DNA of 41,105 nucleotides from NCBI GenBank assembly GCA_035708165.1, contig DASSSZ010000002.1, forward strand, positions 1-41,105. Reading direction: 5' to 3'. Numbering within the stretch: the first letter of the stretch is position 1; every line of letters begins with the position of its first letter. This document shows, in pieces, positions 1-11,577 of this stretch. The notes below the pieces were generated by a model. That model did not search any database, was not told the origin of the DNA, and worked only from the letters and a program-made list of their open reading frames with translations. The translations under genes were made by a program, and so were the position numbers. The DNA is from Minisyncoccota bacterium (GTDB lineage: Bacteria; Patescibacteriota; Minisyncoccia; Phycocordibacterales; UBA2100).

Positions 1-1965
1 GGCGGCGAGGTTGGTGATGAAGCTGTTCGTCGCACGGGCAGGAGTGAAGTAGAGGTTCGATCCTTCAGCGAGGTTGGTCGTGGACTTCGTGCCGAGCCAG
101 AAGTCCGCGGAGGTGGTCGAGAAGCCGGAGACGTTCTGCTGCGTGAGCCAGTAATCGGCAGAGGTCGTGCTGTAGAAATATCCCTTGTCGAGCGAATTGA
201 GATACGTCTGCACGCGCGCGTCCGTGAAGTACTTATTGGCAGCGCCTTCGGCGAGGGCGTCGGTAGTAGTGGCATACCAGGATGCAAGCGGCAGGTACGC
301 CGCAAGCGACGTCGTCGCAAGGTAATCCGTGCCAGCGATCGCGGGGACCACGACCCCATCGGCGTCAGTCTTGAGGATCGCAGAGGGTGCGCTCGTGATC
401 GCGAGGCGCGAGGTCGTGGCACTCGAGGCTACGAGCCCCGTAATATCAGCGACAGACGCCGAGAGCGATCCTATGACGCCTCGCGTGAACGTGCCCACCG
501 ATGCGAAGAGATTGGTCGAAGTCGCGTTCGTGGTCGAGGCATCGACCGCGAAGAATGTAGTCGTAGTCGCATGCGTGCTCGACGCATTCGTGACCGAGAG
601 CACCTGCGTGCTCGTGCTGAACGTGAATGCAGGCGACCCGCCGAAGCTGCCGCCATCATTGAACTGGATCTGCGTCGCTGCGCCGCCCGGGTTCGCTCCG
701 ATGCCGCCTCCTGTCCCGTCGCCGAGAATGCCGAGCGTGGATGTGGCGACCCAGCGCGTCGATGTCCCGGTGGATAGCAGGACATACCCCGCTGTTCCTG
801 CCGAATCAGCGCTATCAAGGAGCGCTCCGCCGAGCCCGAGATTGCCCGTGAGCATCCCGCCGGAAAGCGCCAGGTATTGGCTCGCAGTGATATCGTCCGG
901 GATATCCGCATCCGTAAGGCCCGAGATCGCGCCGGTGAAAGTCACGCCCGAGAGCGTCACACCGCTCAGGTTGTCTATCCGCTGCGAAAGCGCGAGCGCA
1001 TTGCCGAATCCGCCGCTCGCCGGAAGGCTGCCGTTTGCGCTCAAGCCATCCAGCGATTGGCGCAGGCTGCCGATCTGCGACTCGAGATACGCCAGGTCCT
1101 GCGCGCTGGCGCCAGAAGAGGTCGCGGCGACGGTATAGCTATTGTTGTAGGTTTTGTACTCGTTCTTGGTGGTGTTGTTGTACGTGTTGTACACGTTGGT
1201 CACCGATGTGGTCGCGGCGGCAGGGGCGCTGGCAGGCACATTGGCCGCAAGGATTCCCGAAGCGGCAGGAACGACAGCGCGAGAAGCGGCAGGCTCCTGC
1301 TCCGCGAGCGCCGGCAAGCCGCGCATGACACGCAGCTCCTCGCCAAGGACAGGCACATGATCGAATGCGCCGCCGAACGCGAGCGCCGTGCCGCTCCCGA
1401 CTGTCAGGATCGCGCAGAGCGCCACGAGCGCAGGTGCGAGCCAGGGAGTAGTGCGCGCATGCTCGTGATATTCCTGCTGCCGTGCCAGCGAGAGCGCCAT
1501 CGCTGTCTCTACCTGCTGCTGGTGCTGCCGCTCGAAGAACGCTTCGAGCACGGGCACTCCCACGTACCAGGTGCGCCCGACCTGCTTGCCGGCGATCTTT
1601 CCTTCGCGACACAGGCGCGAGATGTAATCGTTCGTCACGCCGAAGCGCTGTGCTGCCTGCTGCGCAGAGAGCATGGACTGGCTTGCGAGATACTCCTCGC
1701 GCCGCATCTTCGCGAGCTCTTGGGCGCGTCGCTCCTGCTCATCATGCACGGAGGAGAGATACGATGCGAGCGATTGCTCATTCACGCACCATGTGCGGCC
1801 GTCGAGCACGCCGTCGACTTTGCCTTCGCGACACAGGCGCGCGATGTAATCGTTCGTGATGCCGAAGCGCCTTCCCGCTTCGGTCGAGGCGATGAGCGTG
1901 CTCGTCGCAGGCGGAATCTCTTCTGGCGAATTGCCTAGAGTTTCATTAGGTAGTTCGCCATTCAT
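1..1965 (-). CDS. Large membrane-anchored surface protein, 5' part (open at left edge): 2 tandem HTH_17/excisionase-like domains, TM helix, tail-fibre/adhesin-like repeats
   Basis: Hand translation of the minus frame is stop-free from the ATG at 1965 to base 1. It contains FGITNDYIARLCREGKVDG..GRTWCV and FGVTNDYISRLCREGKIAGKQVGRTWYV, a hydrophobic WLAPALVALCAILTVGSGTALAF segment, then YLALSGGMLTG, PGGAATQIQFNDGGSFGG and TTNLAEGSNLYFT-type repeats. TAAAAT -10 lies 9 nt upstream. Confidence 0.9.
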   Translation of the reverse strand, partial: MNGELPNETLGNSPEEIPPATSTLIASTEAGRRFGITNDYIARLCREGKVDGVLDGRTWCVNEQSLASYLSSVHDEQERRAQELAKMRREEYLASQSMLSAQQAAQRFGVTNDYISRLCREGKIAGKQVGRTWYVGVPVLEAFFERQHQQQVETAMALSLARQQEYHEHARTTPWLAPALVALCAILTVGSGTALAFGGAFDHVPVLGEELRVMRGLPALAEQEPAASRAVVPAASGILAANVPASAPAAATTSVTNVYNTYNNTTKNEYKTYNNSYTVAATSSGASAQDLAYLESQIGSLRQSLDGLSANGSLPASGGFGNALALSQRIDNLSGVTLSGVTFTGAISGLTDADIPDDITASQYLALSGGMLTGNLGLGGALLDSADSAGTAGYVLLSTGTSTRWVATSTLGILGDGTGGGIGANPGGAATQIQFNDGGSFGGSPAFTFSTSTQVLSVTNASSTHATTTTFFAVDASTTNATSTNLFASVGTFTRGVIGSLSASVADITGLVASSATTSRLAITSAPSAILKTDADGVVVPAIAGTDYLATTSLAAYLPLASWYATTTDALAEGAANKYFTDARVQTYLNSLDKGYFYSTTSADYWLTQQNVSGFSTTSADFWLGTKSTTNLAEGSNLYFTPARATNSFITNLAA
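1601..1870. repeat. 48-bp direct repeat (1601-1648 / 1823-1870) encoding the cores of the two HTH domains
   Basis: ccttcgcgacacaggcgcg(a/c)gatgtaatcgttcgt(c/g)a(c/t)gccgaagcgc; 3 mismatches, 222 bp apart (in frame). Confidence 0.9.
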
Positions 1966-2294
1966 CGTGATTCAATTTTATCGCTCAACTGCGCTCAAAA
2001 TGGCCCCATGCAAATGAGAATGGGGATAAGAAGAATATGCATGGAAACGCATGCGATCCGATCAGCAAAAGGGGATCGATACCCTCGCGAGCGTCATCCG
2101 TCGCTCACGTCCAGCCATCCTCCGGCCACTGATTTGAAGCACTGCAGGGGAGAGCCTATGGGGCATTCTCCGCCCAGGCGTATCCGGGAATACGGCGCAG
2201 CAAGCCGCGGTCGCAGGCGACACGGCGTCTCGGTCACTTCGACCATCATCATTTCCATCCCGCTTAGGCGAGATGCCGAGATTCCTTGTTTTTC

Positions 2295-2348
2295 AATCCG
2301 AGATTCCGAGATTATCGCTGTATATAAGTCATCTCGGAATCTCGGATT
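2295..2348. repeat. Perfect 18-bp inverted repeat with 18-nt AT-rich spacer (operator-like)
   Basis: aatccgagattccgagat (2295-2312) / atctcggaatctcggatt (2331-2348). Confidence 0.85.
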
Positions 2349-2350
2349 AT

Positions 2351-2380
2351 GAAAAACCCCGGGGTGTACCGGGGATTTTC
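2351..2380 (-). terminator. Intrinsic terminator of secA
   Basis: ccccgg/ccgggg stem with a U-run on the minus strand, 17 nt after the secA stop. Confidence 0.75.
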
Positions 2381-2396
2381 TGATGAGGGTGAATCG

Positions 2397-4925
2397 CTAC
2401 TCGACGATCCGCCAGCCTTGCGCGAGCATCAGCTCCGCCTTCTTGTACTTCACCGTCTGGGACTCTGAGCCGTTGGTGATGGTGACGCGATCGTTGCGAT
2501 CATGCTTCTTGGCGTGTGCGGCCGCCTGGCTCCCCTGCCCCTCCTTGGTGAGCTCGAGCGCGGCTGCGTGCACCTCTGAGAGCTGGGCCTGCTCGACTGG
2601 GGCCTGCTGGGCAGCCGGCTGGACTGAAGCCAGCTGCGTGATGAGGCGTACCACATCCTCGGCATAGGAAGCCTCGAGCTCCTGGAAGAGGCGGAGACCC
2701 TCCTTCTTGTACTCCACCAAAGGGTCGCGCTGCCCGTATGCGCGCAGGGAAACGCTGTTGCGGAGATAATCCATGGTCTCGAGCTGGTCCACCCAGAGCA
2801 TGTCGATCGTCTGGAGCATCAGGCGGCGGACGATTGCATAGTACGCGACCTCGCCGAGCTCCTGCTTCTTCTTCGCGAAGGCGGCGTGCGCTTCCTCATC
2901 GCCGTCGGCGATGCGCAGGAGCTCCTGGTCGATCGCCTCATTGCTCCCGAGCAGGAGCTCGCGTCGCCGCGCGTAGATGGTCTGGCGCTGCACGTTCAGC
3001 ACGTCGTCGTACGCGAGGACCTGCTTGCGGCCATCGAAGTGGAATTCCTCGATCTTGGTCTGCGCCTTCTCGAGCGAGCGGGTGATGATACGATTCTGGA
3101 TCGGCTCATCCTCCGGGATGCGGAAGGTCCCCATCAGGCTCTTGATCGTGTCCGCGGCGAAGACGCGCATGAGCGGGTCCTCGAGCGAGACGAAGAACTG
3201 GGTCTCCCCCGGGTCGCCCTGGCGGCCGGCACGGCCGCGGAGCTGATTGTCGATGCGTCGCGCCTCATGCCGCTCGGTGCCAAGCACGAAAAGGCCGCCG
3301 TTCTCCCGCACTTCCCGCTCGGCCTCGGGCGAGCCGGGATTGCCGCCGAGCTTGATGTCCACTCCGCGCCCGGCCATGTTGGTCGCGATCGTGACAGCGC
3401 CCGGGGCGCCGGCTTGGGCCACGATCTCCCCTTCCCGCTCGTGATTCTTCGCATTGAGGATCTCGTGCGGGATGCCTGCCTGCCGGAAGTGCGCGGAAAG
3501 GAGCTCGTTCTTCTCCACCGAGACGGTGCCGACGAGGACCGGCTGCCCTTTCTCATGGAGCTGCTTCACCTTCGCGCTGATCGCCTGGAACTTCCCCTTC
3601 TCCGTCTGGAAGATGAGGTCGTCGTGGTCGATGCGCGCGATCGGCTTGTTCGTGGGGATGGCGACGGTCGTGAGGCCATAGACCTTGTAGAACTCCTCGT
3701 TCGAGGTCACGGCGGTTCCGGTCATGCCGGCGAGCTTGTCGTAGAGGCGGAAGAAGTTCTGGAACGTGATGGATGCCATCGTGCGGCTCTCGCGCTGGAT
3801 GGGTACGCCCTCCTTCGCCTCGATCGCCTGGTGCAGCCCCTCGCTCCAGCGGCGGCCCGGCTGGAGGCGGCCCGTGAACTCGTCCACGATCACCACTTCC
3901 CCATCGCGCACTACGTAGTCGCGATCGCGCTCGTAGAGCGCCTCGGCCTGGACCGCCTTCTCGAGATGATGGACGTACTTGATGCCCTTATCCGTATAGA
4001 TATTTTCGAGGTTGAGCGCGCGCTCCGCCTTCTCGATGCCTGAATCCGAGATCTCGATCTGCTTGCGCTTCTCATCCACCTCGTAGTCCTCGCCGCGCGT
4101 GAGCGACTTGGCGATCGGGACGAACTGCTGATAGAGCGCTTCCGCCTCGGCGACCGGTGCCGAGATGATAAGCGGCGTACGAGCCTCGTCGATGAGGATC
4201 GAGTCGATCTCGTCCACGATGGCATAGGCATGCGCGCGCTGGCGGAGCATGGCCGGGTCGTACTCGAGGCTGTCGCGCAGATAGTCGAAGCCGTACTCGT
4301 TATTCGTGCCGTATGTGATATCGGCCGCATACGCTTCGCGGCGCTCGCAGGTGCGCAGGAAATCGTGCTCCACCTTGAAGGAACCGAGCTCATCGCGCTC
4401 CTGGTCATCTTCCGGCGTCGCCGTCTCGGCATCATAGAGGAACGAGACCTCGTGGTTGAGGACGCCGACCGTAAGCCCCAGGGCGTCATAGACCTGGCCC
4501 ATCCATGCCGCATCGCGGCGGGAGAGGTAATCGTTCACCGTGACTACGTGCACGCCCTTGCCCGCAAGCGCATTCAGATAGACCGGCAGCGTGGCCACCA
4601 GGGTCTTGCCCTCGCCCGTGCGCATCTCGGCGATGTTGCCCCAGTGCATGATGATGCCGCCCACGAGCTGGACATCGAAATGGCGCAGGCCGAGCGTGCG
4701 CTGGGCAGCCTCCCGGACGGCCGCGAACGCCTCGGGCAGGAGGTCGTCGAGCGTCTCGCCTGCCGCGAGGCGCTCCCGGAACCGGGCGCTGATGCCTGCG
4801 AGGTCGGCGTCCGTAAAGGCCCGGAACTCCTCCTCCCGGGCGTTGATCGCGGCGACGAGCGGCTCCGTCTTGCGCAGGAGCGCTGCCTGCTCATCGGTAC
4901 CCATCAGGCGTGAAAATAAGGCCAT
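2397..4925 (-). CDS. secA: Preprotein translocase ATPase SecA
   Basis: AEMRTGEGKT Walker A, VHVVTVNDYL, AIVDEIDSILIDEARTPLIIS, LRGRAGRQGDPG. Start placed at MALFSRL (4925) because TAGAAT lies 8 nt upstream. Confidence 0.97.
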   Translation of the reverse strand: MALFSRLMGTDEQAALLRKTEPLVAAINAREEEFRAFTDADLAGISARFRERLAAGETLDDLLPEAFAAVREAAQRTLGLRHFDVQLVGGIIMHWGNIAEMRTGEGKTLVATLPVYLNALAGKGVHVVTVNDYLSRRDAAWMGQVYDALGLTVGVLNHEVSFLYDAETATPEDDQERDELGSFKVEHDFLRTCERREAYAADITYGTNNEYGFDYLRDSLEYDPAMLRQRAHAYAIVDEIDSILIDEARTPLIISAPVAEAEALYQQFVPIAKSLTRGEDYEVDEKRKQIEISDSGIEKAERALNLENIYTDKGIKYVHHLEKAVQAEALYERDRDYVVRDGEVVIVDEFTGRLQPGRRWSEGLHQAIEAKEGVPIQRESRTMASITFQNFFRLYDKLAGMTGTAVTSNEEFYKVYGLTTVAIPTNKPIARIDHDDLIFQTEKGKFQAISAKVKQLHEKGQPVLVGTVSVEKNELLSAHFRQAGIPHEILNAKNHEREGEIVAQAGAPGAVTIATNMAGRGVDIKLGGNPGSPEAEREVRENGGLFVLGTERHEARRIDNQLRGRAGRQGDPGETQFFVSLEDPLMRVFAADTIKSLMGTFRIPEDEPIQNRIITRSLEKAQTKIEEFHFDGRKQVLAYDDVLNVQRQTIYARRRELLLGSNEAIDQELLRIADGDEEAHAAFAKKKQELGEVAYYAIVRRLMLQTIDMLWVDQLETMDYLRNSVSLRAYGQRDPLVEYKKEGLRLFQELEASYAEDVVRLITQLASVQPAAQQAPVEQAQLSEVHAAALELTKEGQGSQAAAHAKKHDRNDRVTITNGSESQTVKYKKAELMLAQGWRIVE

Positions 4926-4944
4926 GTCAGGCCATTCTAGCAAA

Positions 4945-4977
4945 GGAAACGCCCCGCTGCGAGAGCGGGGCGTTTCC
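4945..4977 (-). terminator. Terminator hairpin after the H1-like gene
   Basis: 14-bp stem ggaaacgccccgct/agcggggcgtttcc. Confidence 0.65.
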
Positions 4978-4990
4978 GAGAAAGACACGA

Positions 4991-5610: not shown

Positions 5611-5650
5611 CTATCCCCACATCTGCGCGGCCGCGCAGATGTGGGGATAG
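5611..5650. repeat. Perfect 40-bp palindrome, copy 1 (downstream of the PaaX/Cas2-like gene)
   Basis: ctatccccacatctgcgcgg|ccgcgcagatgtggggatag. Confidence 0.95.
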
Positions 5651-10923: not shown

Positions 10924-11577
10924 TTATTTGCGCGCGAAAACGTAATAACCGGATGTCATGATGGATGGTACTGGCACGGTACCCATGCCACTGCGACGAC
11001 CATACTCTTTCTTGATTAAGAGCTTAAGTAGGCCTGCTGTTCTTGCCAACGCTAGAAGGAGCGTTTTTGTTAAGATGCCGCCCCGCAGATCTGTTTGATA
11101 TGCAATCCTTTGCATCAAAATCCCAAATGTCTCAGAGGTCGATGACTCAGCTTGAATTTTGACATCGGTCCAATCACGAAAAAGGTGTGCCAGCCCGTAT
11201 TCGGTGTAACGATAATAATCTCCTGGGGCATCGTGAATCGGAAATACGAAACGTGTCGTCAGAATAATTCTTCCATTCTCCTTGAGCACGCGGCGCATCT
11301 CAGACAAAGCGCGCTCAGGAGTGTGAAGATGCTCCAAGACTTCCGTGCAAACGATACATTCGAATGTGGCATCTTCAAAAGGTAGGTCATGGGCATCGCC
11401 TACGATATCGACCCCTGGCGCCTGATATACATCCAAACCAACCCGGTTCGGGAAGAATTGCGAATATGGGGAATGCGCACAACCAAGATCAAGCGTGTAG
11501 GCATCGGATGCATGCGACTCAATGAACACATCGAGTCGTTCGCGCGTCATTTTCGACAATAAAAATTTCTTAAGCAT
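10924..11577 (-). CDS. Class I SAM-dependent methyltransferase (Methyltransf_11-like)
   Basis: TLDLGCA, VGDAHDLPFEDATFECIVCTEVLEHL, HDAPGDYYRYT. Confidence 0.88.
   Translation of the reverse strand: MLKKFLLSKMTRERLDVFIESHASDAYTLDLGCAHSPYSQFFPNRVGLDVYQAPGVDIVGDAHDLPFEDATFECIVCTEVLEHLHTPERALSEMRRVLKENGRIILTTRFVFPIHDAPGDYYRYTEYGLAHLFRDWTDVKIQAESSTSETFGILMQRIAYQTDLRGGILTKTLLLALARTAGLLKLLIKKEYGRRSGMGTVPVPSIMTSGYYVFARK

Follow-up and report, generated by a model that had tools for sequence, protein, structure and literature searches.

Single-pass proteins are the commonest form among the transmembrane transcription regulators (TTRs), the class of ToxR, TcpP, and CadC (Demey et al., 2023, PMC10269533); the text of this survey mentions neither the candidate phyla radiation (CPR)/Patescibacteria nor HTH_17. 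The mosaic adhesive trimer (MAT) fibres of Bdellovibrio begin with a signal peptide, which is followed by a conserved, β-rich anchor domain of ~130 aa (Caulton et al., 2024, PMC10769870). MYRF, a eukaryotic membrane-bound transcription factor, contains a phage-derived ICA/S74 domain (PMC3742443, PMC3742440), and its DNA binding requires, or is governed by, trimerization (PMC5436001). Here we analysed a stretch of 41,105 nucleotides (hereafter the window), positions 1 to 41,105 of the forward strand of contig DASSSZ010000002.1 (C2) in assembly GCA_035708165.1 of a Minisyncoccota bacterium. The minus strand of its first 1,965 bp was shown to contain the start of a giant gene of a Kaiserbacteria-like, ultra-small CPR bacterium, whose product is a single-pass membrane protein with two winged helix-turn-helix (wHTH) units before the transmembrane (TM) helix and a putative extracellular fibre behind it. 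The ultra-small bacteria of the CPR are largely uncultured; they spend their lives attached to other cells, and few regulators can be recognized in them.

The frame runs open from an ATG at 1965 to base 1, a length of 655 codons (1..1965, minus strand, like all parts of the gene given below; aa 1–655), and a stop codon lies two codons 5′ of the ATG. Base 1 of the window is also the first base of contig C2, thus the gene is cut by the assembly and not by biology, and the frame is missing from the default ORF track because it is open at the contig end. The first-pass annotation had pointed to this stop-free frame absent from the track, which proved to be a real gene start truncated at the contig end. 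The source genome consists of 750 kb in 6 contigs and is 97% complete. In DNA of 62% GC stop-free frames of 250–350 aa are common, and two of 258 and 353 aa lie on the strand opposite the gene. Since long spurious frames arise in GC-rich DNA, and since the 3′-end lies outside the sequence and the reads do not bridge C2 to contig C1 (see below), one might suppose that there is no giant gene at all, that is, that the frame stops just past the window, represents a decaying pseudogene fragment, or is open by chance. We regard this as extremely unlikely. Judged by profile matches above curated cut-offs and by thousands of homologs, the frame is clearly coding: an exhaustive phmmer search with the head (aa 1–210) detected 2,810 cluster representatives at E ≤ 1e-3, 169 of them at E ≤ 1e-10. 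A source-sample unitig of 184 nt runs at least 124 nt past base 1, and the read depth over bases 1–141 is 2–3 times that of the flank. The raised depth and the continuing unitig show that C2 broke inside a repeat common to the paralogs on contigs C5 and C1. Furthermore, no family member with the same architecture ends so shortly past such repeats, and the ectodomain encoded in the window and the frame found on C1 fit colinearly, both of which also speak against a chance or decayed frame.

The head showed both the sequence and the fold features of the HTH_17/excisionase family, that is, profile scores above the cut-offs and a β-α-α-β-β winged helix. Pfam HTH_17 (PF12728) matched aa 98–147 with 37.1 bits (cut-off 27, E = 3.7e-9), and the NCBIfam model TIGR01764 (“excise”, excisionase family DNA-binding protein) matched in two stretches with 46.1 bits (cut-off 28.8); the Xre-type HTH models reached 13–15 bits on the head, under their cut-offs. 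The AlphaFold model of the head, preceded by alignment with 19 other heads, had a mean predicted local distance difference test (pLDDT) score of 89.5, with most 10-residue blocks at 96–98. The first wHTH unit (aa 24–62; 1780..1896), recognized in the model, the second TIGR01764 stretch, and the alignment, has the β-α-α-β-β order, and according to the alignment and the model it is followed by a long helix with a conserved “...LAxxRxxEY” motif (aa 63–96; 1678..1779). The second unit (aa 98–136; 1558..1674), detected by HTH_17, TIGR01764, and AlphaFold, is basic (isoelectric point, pI, 9.6), and the long helix modelled behind it runs toward the membrane (aa 137–172; 1450..1557). The pLDDT was mostly above 95 in both units, and each trailing helix has ~35 residues. 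The two excisionase/MerR-like HTH repeats, which had been recognized from the letters of the DNA, were thus both modelled as a DNA-binding winged fold. In Foldseek searches against the PDB, good per-domain matches were found only with DNA binders of the excisionase/MerR-type wHTH fold class: TraN of pIP501 (4p0y), with two tandem excisionase-like units in a single chain (probability 1.00), Xis of mycobacteriophage Pukovnik (root-mean-square deviation 1.7–1.9 Å, TM-score 0.68–0.72), BldC (6ama, TM-score 0.70), and RacA (5i44, TM-score 0.61). TraN, as AM32 of pAMβ1, was also the top match of the head in a profile-sequence search, with a marginal E value of 0.015.

The head family can be described by the signature S..A....GY..DY.G.L.R.G......VG..W.V....L. 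In the alignment of 20 heads, W59/W133 are invariant, the recognition-helix Arg (R46/R120) and the wing G-R/K-x-W are nearly so, and the conserved charged helix trails each HTH across the family. The two units of the window protein share 44.6% identity, and their maximum identity with any HTH of the giants or of the small partner proteins encoded beside them in relatives is 42.9%. The tandem pair is best explained by an internal duplication, as far as these identities can tell, and origin of the head by fusion with the small partner gene is disfavoured, since the two units are nearest to each other. Some relatives of the head, namely P0075 (723 aa), P0122 (563 aa), P0051, P0053, and P0100, are arrays of 5–7 HTHs per chain; a hydrophobic-helix scan found no such helix in P0075, the only multi-HTH array so examined, and soluble multi-HTH versions of the head domain appear to exist.

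The HTH units are basic family-wide (median pI 9.3, 83% of 228 units above pI 8), and from their sequence and modelled fold it is somewhat probable that the wHTH heads bind DNA at the membrane. A different role is suggested by RodZ, an HTH-TM-ectodomain protein whose cytoplasmic HTH binds MreB. By this precedent, the units could be protein-docking modules that do not bind DNA but attach to a cytoplasmic partner or to each other (giant and small partner), and in this way position or cluster the fibres. Conservation of a small 2×HTH-TM gene beside the giant gene in most relatives, the acidic residue and Tyr conserved at the start of the recognition helix, and the first HTH, which is not basic in the window protein, would suit docking. 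Nevertheless, the fold class and all of the close structural neighbours are those of DNA binders, as many as 83% of the units are basic, and the window genome is without the small partner, so contact between giant and partner is not obligatory. We consider docking as the sole role of the HTHs decidedly unlikely.

A single TM helix follows the head (aa 176–203; 1357..1440). Hydropathy analysis placed the hydrophobic peak at aa 179–197, the model extended the helix over aa 176–203, and the segment agrees with the N-in topology seen throughout the family. In the 15 residues before and after the helix, 44 family members had on average 2.45 and 1.25 K+R residues, respectively; these residues were more numerous before the helix in 28 proteins and after it in four, and 12 were tied (Wilcoxon p = 3e-5). 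No signal peptide precedes the ~175 folded residues of the head. The family-wide positive-inside bias, the lack of a signal peptide, and the C-terminal position of the extracellular modules thus establish an N-in/C-out topology, by which the predicted product is shown to be a type II, single-pass membrane protein with cytoplasmic HTHs. Both the TM segment behind the HTHs and their location inside the cell, proposed at first reading, were borne out, the latter by the bias of the whole family, though the window protein alone ties in this count.

The membrane-proximal part of the predicted extracellular fibre (aa 204–655; 1..1356) was delimited by composition, homologs, and modelling as an A/T/S/G/N-rich region. 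Residues 201–655 consist of 15% A, 14% T, 12% S, 10% G, and 5% N, in line with the Thr/Ser/Gly/Asn-rich region described earlier. The motif YLALSGGMLTG (aa 364–374; 844..876) was also found in other giants of the family by motif search and among the homologs, and the motif PGGAATQIQFNDGGSFGG, quoted in the first-pass annotation, is present in the frame as well. The segment of aa 568–655 (1..264) contains two LAEGxNxYFT repeats (LAEGAANKYFT at aa 571–581 and LAEGSNLYFT at aa 632–641) and resembles the paralogs on C5 and C1 and structural proteins of T4-like cyanophages (36–40% identity, E = 1e-5 to 8e-4). Searches of Pfam, NCBIfam, and PHROG gave no match to aa 211–655. The view that these motifs are typical of phage tail fibres therefore stood in part: all of them are present and the last segment is cyanophage-like, but aa 211–655 match none of the families in these three collections. 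The ectodomain has 48 homologs. The named ones, annotated as “hypothetical” or “helix-turn-helix domain-containing protein, partial”, come from Minisyncoccia, Kaiserbacteria, or Patescibacteria, and some homologs contain a Peptidase_S74, phage T7 tail-fibre, or pectate-lyase-type domain. PDB sequence searches with the ectodomain profile and with the C1 tail gave nothing significant. Contig C5 of the same genome encodes a paralog of 1,811 aa (126415–131847, plus strand; L029:1415-6847), which has no HTH head but its own N-terminal anchor, as well as BNR/sortilin-type repeats, Peptidase_S74, and an Ig-like domain, and which is 63% identical to aa 537–627 of the window protein. To judge from such similarities, fibre modules have evidently been swapped between HTH-headed and ordinary surface proteins.

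The rest of the gene quite probably lies on contig C1, which is the only other contig end with a fitting partner frame. A frame of 3,338 aa (C1:292540-302553, minus strand) has its N-terminus cut at the right end of C1 in the fitting orientation, and contains Peptidase_S74 at aa 2978–3037 (Pfam, 1.1e-10; motif SDERLK, corresponding to SDxxxK) together with a Bact_surface_Ig-like domain. The join is supported by several observations: the genome has one HTH head only and the C1 frame is headless; the window ectodomain followed by the C1 frame is colinear with each of the full-length HTH-headed proteins P0038, P0061, P0029, P0017, and P0123; P0046 has two HTHs, S74, and the Ig-like domain in this order in one chain; and the gene next after the C1 frame is IS200/Y1_Tnp-like, as is the one after the HTH giants of genomes G030, G012, and G045. 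The joined protein would have at least 3,993 aa (~4,000). The C-terminal S74 chaperone that had been predicted is accordingly present in the full-length relatives and in the probable continuation on C1, but it lies outside the window and depends on the join. As a separate observation, IS200/Y1_Tnp-like genes of ~220–250 aa adjoin giant surface-protein genes both in the window genome (C1:291782-292507 and C1:283955-284182, both on the minus strand) and in relatives (L015:52-708, L020:1042-1707, L027:8224-8883, and L026:2652-3293).

The same architecture was found in many relatives. Among the head matches of at least 600 aa, 37 of 38 had one or two N-terminal HTHs and their first hydrophobic helix at residues ~93–260, and the bodies of the large members, which reach 7,214 aa, consist of 45–59% S/T/G/A/N. 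With a local hidden Markov model, 13 HTH-headed proteins were seen to have an S74 domain at a distance of 200–500 aa from the C-terminus, and the curated Pfam model confirmed it in G051, P0038, P0013, P0026, and P0046. The head occurred in 48 of the 61 genomes of the window's own taxonomic family and order and in two of 150 genomes drawn evenly across the phylum (E ≤ 1e-8); by these counts, the architecture is concentrated in this CPR lineage. A locus search with a single head sequence returned three loci. The named relatives are Candidatus Kaiserbacteria and records labelled Saccharibacteria. Many of the head matches lie 1–3 kb from contig ends, so genes of HTH-headed giants routinely break assemblies. 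HTH-headed giants had been said to occur in CPR annotations without an established function, and this was confirmed: no description of HTH-TM-fibre proteins was found in the literature searched, and the database names are generic (“hypothetical” or “helix-turn-helix domain-containing protein”). In the closed genome G020, an HTH-TM head frame of 443 aa (L017:8513-9841, minus strand) and a fibre frame of 2,872 aa (L017:3-8618, minus strand) overlap by ~100 nt in different frames, which suggests that this giant gene is frameshifted, as a pseudogene, by programmed slippage, or through an assembly error.

The position of S74 in the family bears on a further explanation, namely that engagement, shedding, or tension of the fibre triggers intramembrane or juxtamembrane proteolysis that frees the 2×HTH head, as in MYRF, Notch, and the regulated intramembrane proteolysis of anti-sigma factors. 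The three blocks of MYRF, namely its DNA-binding domain, the ICA of S74 type, and the TM helix, also occur in the family of HTH-headed giants. Their TM helix, however, stands between the HTH and S74, so cleavage by S74 would free the outer chaperone and not the head, and the locus showed neither a conserved cleavage motif nor a site-2 protease nearby. We therefore consider signalling by release very unlikely.

In the relatives, the giant gene has a fixed chromosomal setting, in which secA, (a flavodoxin-like gene and obg), gatB, and the gene of a small protein with two HTHs precede a giant with one HTH. The small partner has ~300–400 aa, two HTHs, and a C-terminal TM helix. This block is rearranged in the window genome: secA (2397..4988, minus strand), identified by its ORF and synteny as the conserved upstream neighbour, is directly followed by the giant with two HTHs, and obg lies on C3. 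The small 2×HTH-TM partner was not detected in the window genome, and in this assembly, 97% complete, tblastn with the GatB of a relative found no gatB, whose place beside the locus is fixed in relatives. Downstream of secA, an intrinsic terminator was identified from the sequence and by a terminator call (2357..2374, minus strand; CCCCGG-loop-CCGGGG and then TTTTT), and because it intervenes, the HTH gene forms its own transcription unit. A repeat scan revealed an array of CCGAGAT/ATCTCGG heptamer doublets between this terminator and the gene (2268..2348, candidate operator/promoter region), which holds a perfect 18-nt inverted repeat (2295–2312 and 2331–2348) around a TATATA spacer and is the sole such cluster in the genome. 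The palindrome of 2295–2348 is, on the basis of its sequence and location, a good candidate target for the head. The palindromes at 5611–5650, which had been put forward as another target, were rejected, as their sequence is unrelated to the heptamers of 2268–2348.

In relatives from several genera with 41–62% GC, ATCTCGG-N3/4-CCGAG(AT) palindromes or doublets with TATA-like spacers, as well as further heptamers, were found at three places: ahead of the small gene, in the interval that separates it from the giant gene, and in the spacer of secA and gatB. These intergenic elements of the secA-gatB-HTH block are located at L016:1714-1765 and 3136, L020:9460-9525 and 11201-11236, L022:3361-3394, L025:2226-2259, L031:2581-2625, and L033:2605-2629, and outside the block the element is rare in most of these genomes. 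Genome-wide, the palindrome was confined to this block in G006, G007, and G030 and had one of its two copies there in G012, and the reversed-palindrome control gave 0–1 sites. This pattern looks like that of a locus-linked operator, as far as the distribution of sites can indicate it. Where heptamers fall within coding sequences, some of them simply encode S-R-D-Y in the HTH motif. Public metagenome contigs, scanned twice for the exact pattern of the doublet palindrome, contained no match, and in the Rfam search of the region upstream of the gene the palindrome gave nothing but miRNA-hairpin noise below threshold. Binding of the palindromes by the neighbouring Y1_Tnp/RayT-like protein, in the way of repetitive extragenic palindromic elements, was unsupported, since G020 with 13 sites and G006 with one have no Y1_Tnp match. 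The copies in G020 are dispersed (L038:2037, L038:5060, and L036:1986 are examples), one being an extended terminator-like hairpin, and in that genome the palindrome behaves as a dispersed hairpin repeat and not as a clean operator. For the function proposed in the first-pass annotation, in which the protein would tether DNA to a host-attachment fibre or link host contact with transcription, the cis-elements compared across genomes are thus suggestive but ambiguous. One unitig of the source sample, 8,415 nt long and with a depth of 15 (vs. 13.6 for contig C2), shares a 30-mer with the ectodomain repeat (window 112–141) and carries, 4,775 nt from it, a 40-nt copy of the heptamer array with one mismatch (window 2273–2312); it could be a second related locus, or it could belong to a co-occurring strain in which another gene lies between these two landmarks.

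A motif scan detected another element nearer to the gene, TTATCCCCA, which is similar to a DnaA box (2021..2029, minus strand) and lies 55 nt upstream of the ATG, ~235 nt past the array. The TTATCC[A/C]CA box is present 5′ of nearly every small and giant HTH gene in the relatives. However, it is not specific to HTH genes: the window genome has 20 sites vs. ~5 expected, and these include sites that precede, by 7–115 nt and in gene orientation, several giant surface-protein genes, a type IV pilin-like gene, and dnaA and dnaN (C6:4288-4316, C6:5875, C5:145562, C1:229933, and C1:172211). Because it also occurs at these genes, we consider it a general DnaA-box or promoter element, which may be controlled by DnaA or may serve surface-gene promoters of this lineage.

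DNA binding by the heads would not have to be regulatory. RacA anchors the origin of Bacillus subtilis to the cell pole, and RacA, a wHTH followed by a long helix, is among the structural neighbours of the head. Low-specificity or few-site binding could likewise make the protein a structural nucleoid-envelope tether, which would anchor the chromosome under the fibre or attachment site. The family-wide basicity of the units would suit such a tether, and the exposed D, Y, and R of the recognition helix, kept in very distant members, suit a common non-specific ligand over species-specific operators; moreover, the small partner of the relatives is almost without an ectodomain and has nothing to sense. 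The conserved palindromes at the locus in several genera argue against it, however, and one protein or one pair per cell is few for bulk tethering. Overall, a tether without regulation seems unlikely to us, though it deserves some weight.

As the explanation of the whole, we favour a membrane-anchored trimeric adhesin fibre whose heads bind DNA in the manner of a transmembrane transcription regulator, and we give this combination an even chance. Its parts differ in strength. From domain content and order we strongly infer a trimeric, S74-assembled surface fibre with three N-terminal TM anchors and six wHTH units below them. The C1-encoded body would consist of repeat modules common to the family and close with the S74 chaperone (SDERLK) and the Ig-like domain, and S74 would drive trimerization before removing itself by cleavage, as it does in the tail fibres of phages and the MAT fibres of Bdellovibrio. 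The product would be a trimeric adhesin or host-contact fibre standing on three N-terminal helices, with the six wHTH units clustered beneath and binding DNA at the membrane. Their most likely target would be their own locus, via the CCGAGAT array between the secA terminator and the gene, and in this way fibre production, and possibly the state of the fibre, could feed back on transcription. Of the roles considered for the heads, we favour one like that of a transmembrane transcription regulator, with autoregulation via the heptamer array as a possibility, though at somewhat less than even odds.

Several observations weigh against the favoured explanation. Among them are the positive-inside count of the window protein itself, which ties at 1 vs. 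1, and the charge of the head, whose first HTH is near-neutral (pI 6.0) and whose whole cytoplasmic part has a pI of 5.9. The AlphaFold monomer model of the ectodomain (aa 202–655, with a 48-sequence alignment) reached a pLDDT of 55 and contained one confident helix (aa ~288–310). Such a poor monomer model is what would be expected of an obligate trimer, but because of it the assignment as a fibre depends on homology and composition. The left end of C2 and the right end of C1 were not connected by the public reads of the source sample (Logan unitigs); these unitigs are fragmented at the repeats, and the 184-nt unitig that continues past base 1 does not recur on the C1 end. The Y1_Tnp neighbour is a common one, as there are 2–4 such genes per genome. 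At the locus, ~300 nt separate the array from the ATG downstream of it, and promoter calling gave no sigma-70-type promoter ahead of the gene. G051 has an HTH-headed giant and no heptamer nearby, and G020 has ~13 palindrome sites, mostly in coding sequences or terminator-like hairpins (L035–L042). Because of this dispersal in G020, autoregulation is something that we infer.

A bolder form of this regulatory explanation is a line from host contact to the chromosome within one polypeptide, in which S74-driven trimerization outside would set the arrangement of the six cytoplasmic wHTHs. Assembly, tension, binding, or loss of a fibre of hundreds of nanometres would then alter the hold of the heads on the array, and the operator array of the gene itself would offer three doublets, that is, six half-sites. 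In this way an episymbiont could sense attachment and tune its surface-fibre genes without a kinase, sigma factor, or second messenger. We think it improbable that the system goes this far.

Compared with described proteins, the window protein shares with the transmembrane transcription regulators an N-terminal cytoplasmic DNA-binding domain, one TM helix, and an extracytoplasmic part in one polypeptide, and by its DNA-binding-type domain on the cytoplasmic side of a TM helix in the same chain it resembles them. ToxR and CadC have an OmpR-type winged helix, whereas the window protein has a duplicated excisionase/MerR-type wHTH, and the small outer sensor domain of the TTRs is replaced in this family by a putative trimeric fibre of thousands of residues with an S74 chaperone. 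RodZ is similar in layout, but it consists of an Xre-type (HTH_25) HTH, a TM helix, and a periplasmic domain, unlike the HTH_17/excisionase HTHs found here. TraN (ORF14 of the Enterococcus plasmid pIP501, PDB 4p0y), titled a double-stranded-DNA-binding protein in the PDB, likewise has two tandem excisionase-like wHTHs; however, it is a small soluble accessory protein of a type IV secretion system, which lacks a TM helix, an ectodomain, and long helices between its units. RacA and BldC have the MerR/Xis-type wHTH, which in RacA is followed by a long helix, and RacA also links DNA to a membrane-associated site, but both are soluble and without a surface domain, RacA contacts the membrane via DivIVA, and no sequence-level relationship with them was detected.

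On the outer side, phage tail fibres and tailspikes and the MAT fibres are likewise long and modular and end in S74 with SDxxxK, which in the known systems trimerizes and cleaves itself off. The MAT fibres, too, are surface structures of a bacterium that fastens on other bacteria, and the HTH-headed giants share repeat motifs with phage structural proteins. Instead of the N-terminal part of MAT proteins, the window protein starts with two wHTHs and a TM helix, and its S74 part probably lies on C1. To our knowledge, no characterized protein other than MYRF combines a TM helix and a DNA-binding domain with a trimerizing chaperone of the S74 type. The order in MYRF is DNA-binding domain-ICA-TM, with ICA on the side of the Ndt80-like DNA-binding domain, which is freed by the cleavage, whereas the order in the family of the window protein is wHTH-TM-fibre-S74; every member of the family that was examined has its TM helix between the HTH and S74, an arrangement unlike the MYRF type of self-release.

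The family thus joins a DNA-binding-type domain, via one membrane helix, to a phage-like fibre, at a fixed chromosomal position across the lineage; the window member is truncated, and fuller members are the better exemplars. If the heads bind DNA, it would be the largest and structurally most extreme transmembrane transcription regulator known and a bacterial counterpart, in another topology, of the trimerization-controlled DNA binding of MYRF. Even if the heads only dock proteins, the family would represent a major unannotated class of CPR surface structures. By analogy, the protein would work most nearly as a transmembrane transcription regulator does, with a fibre of the phage/MAT type, capped by S74, joined to it.

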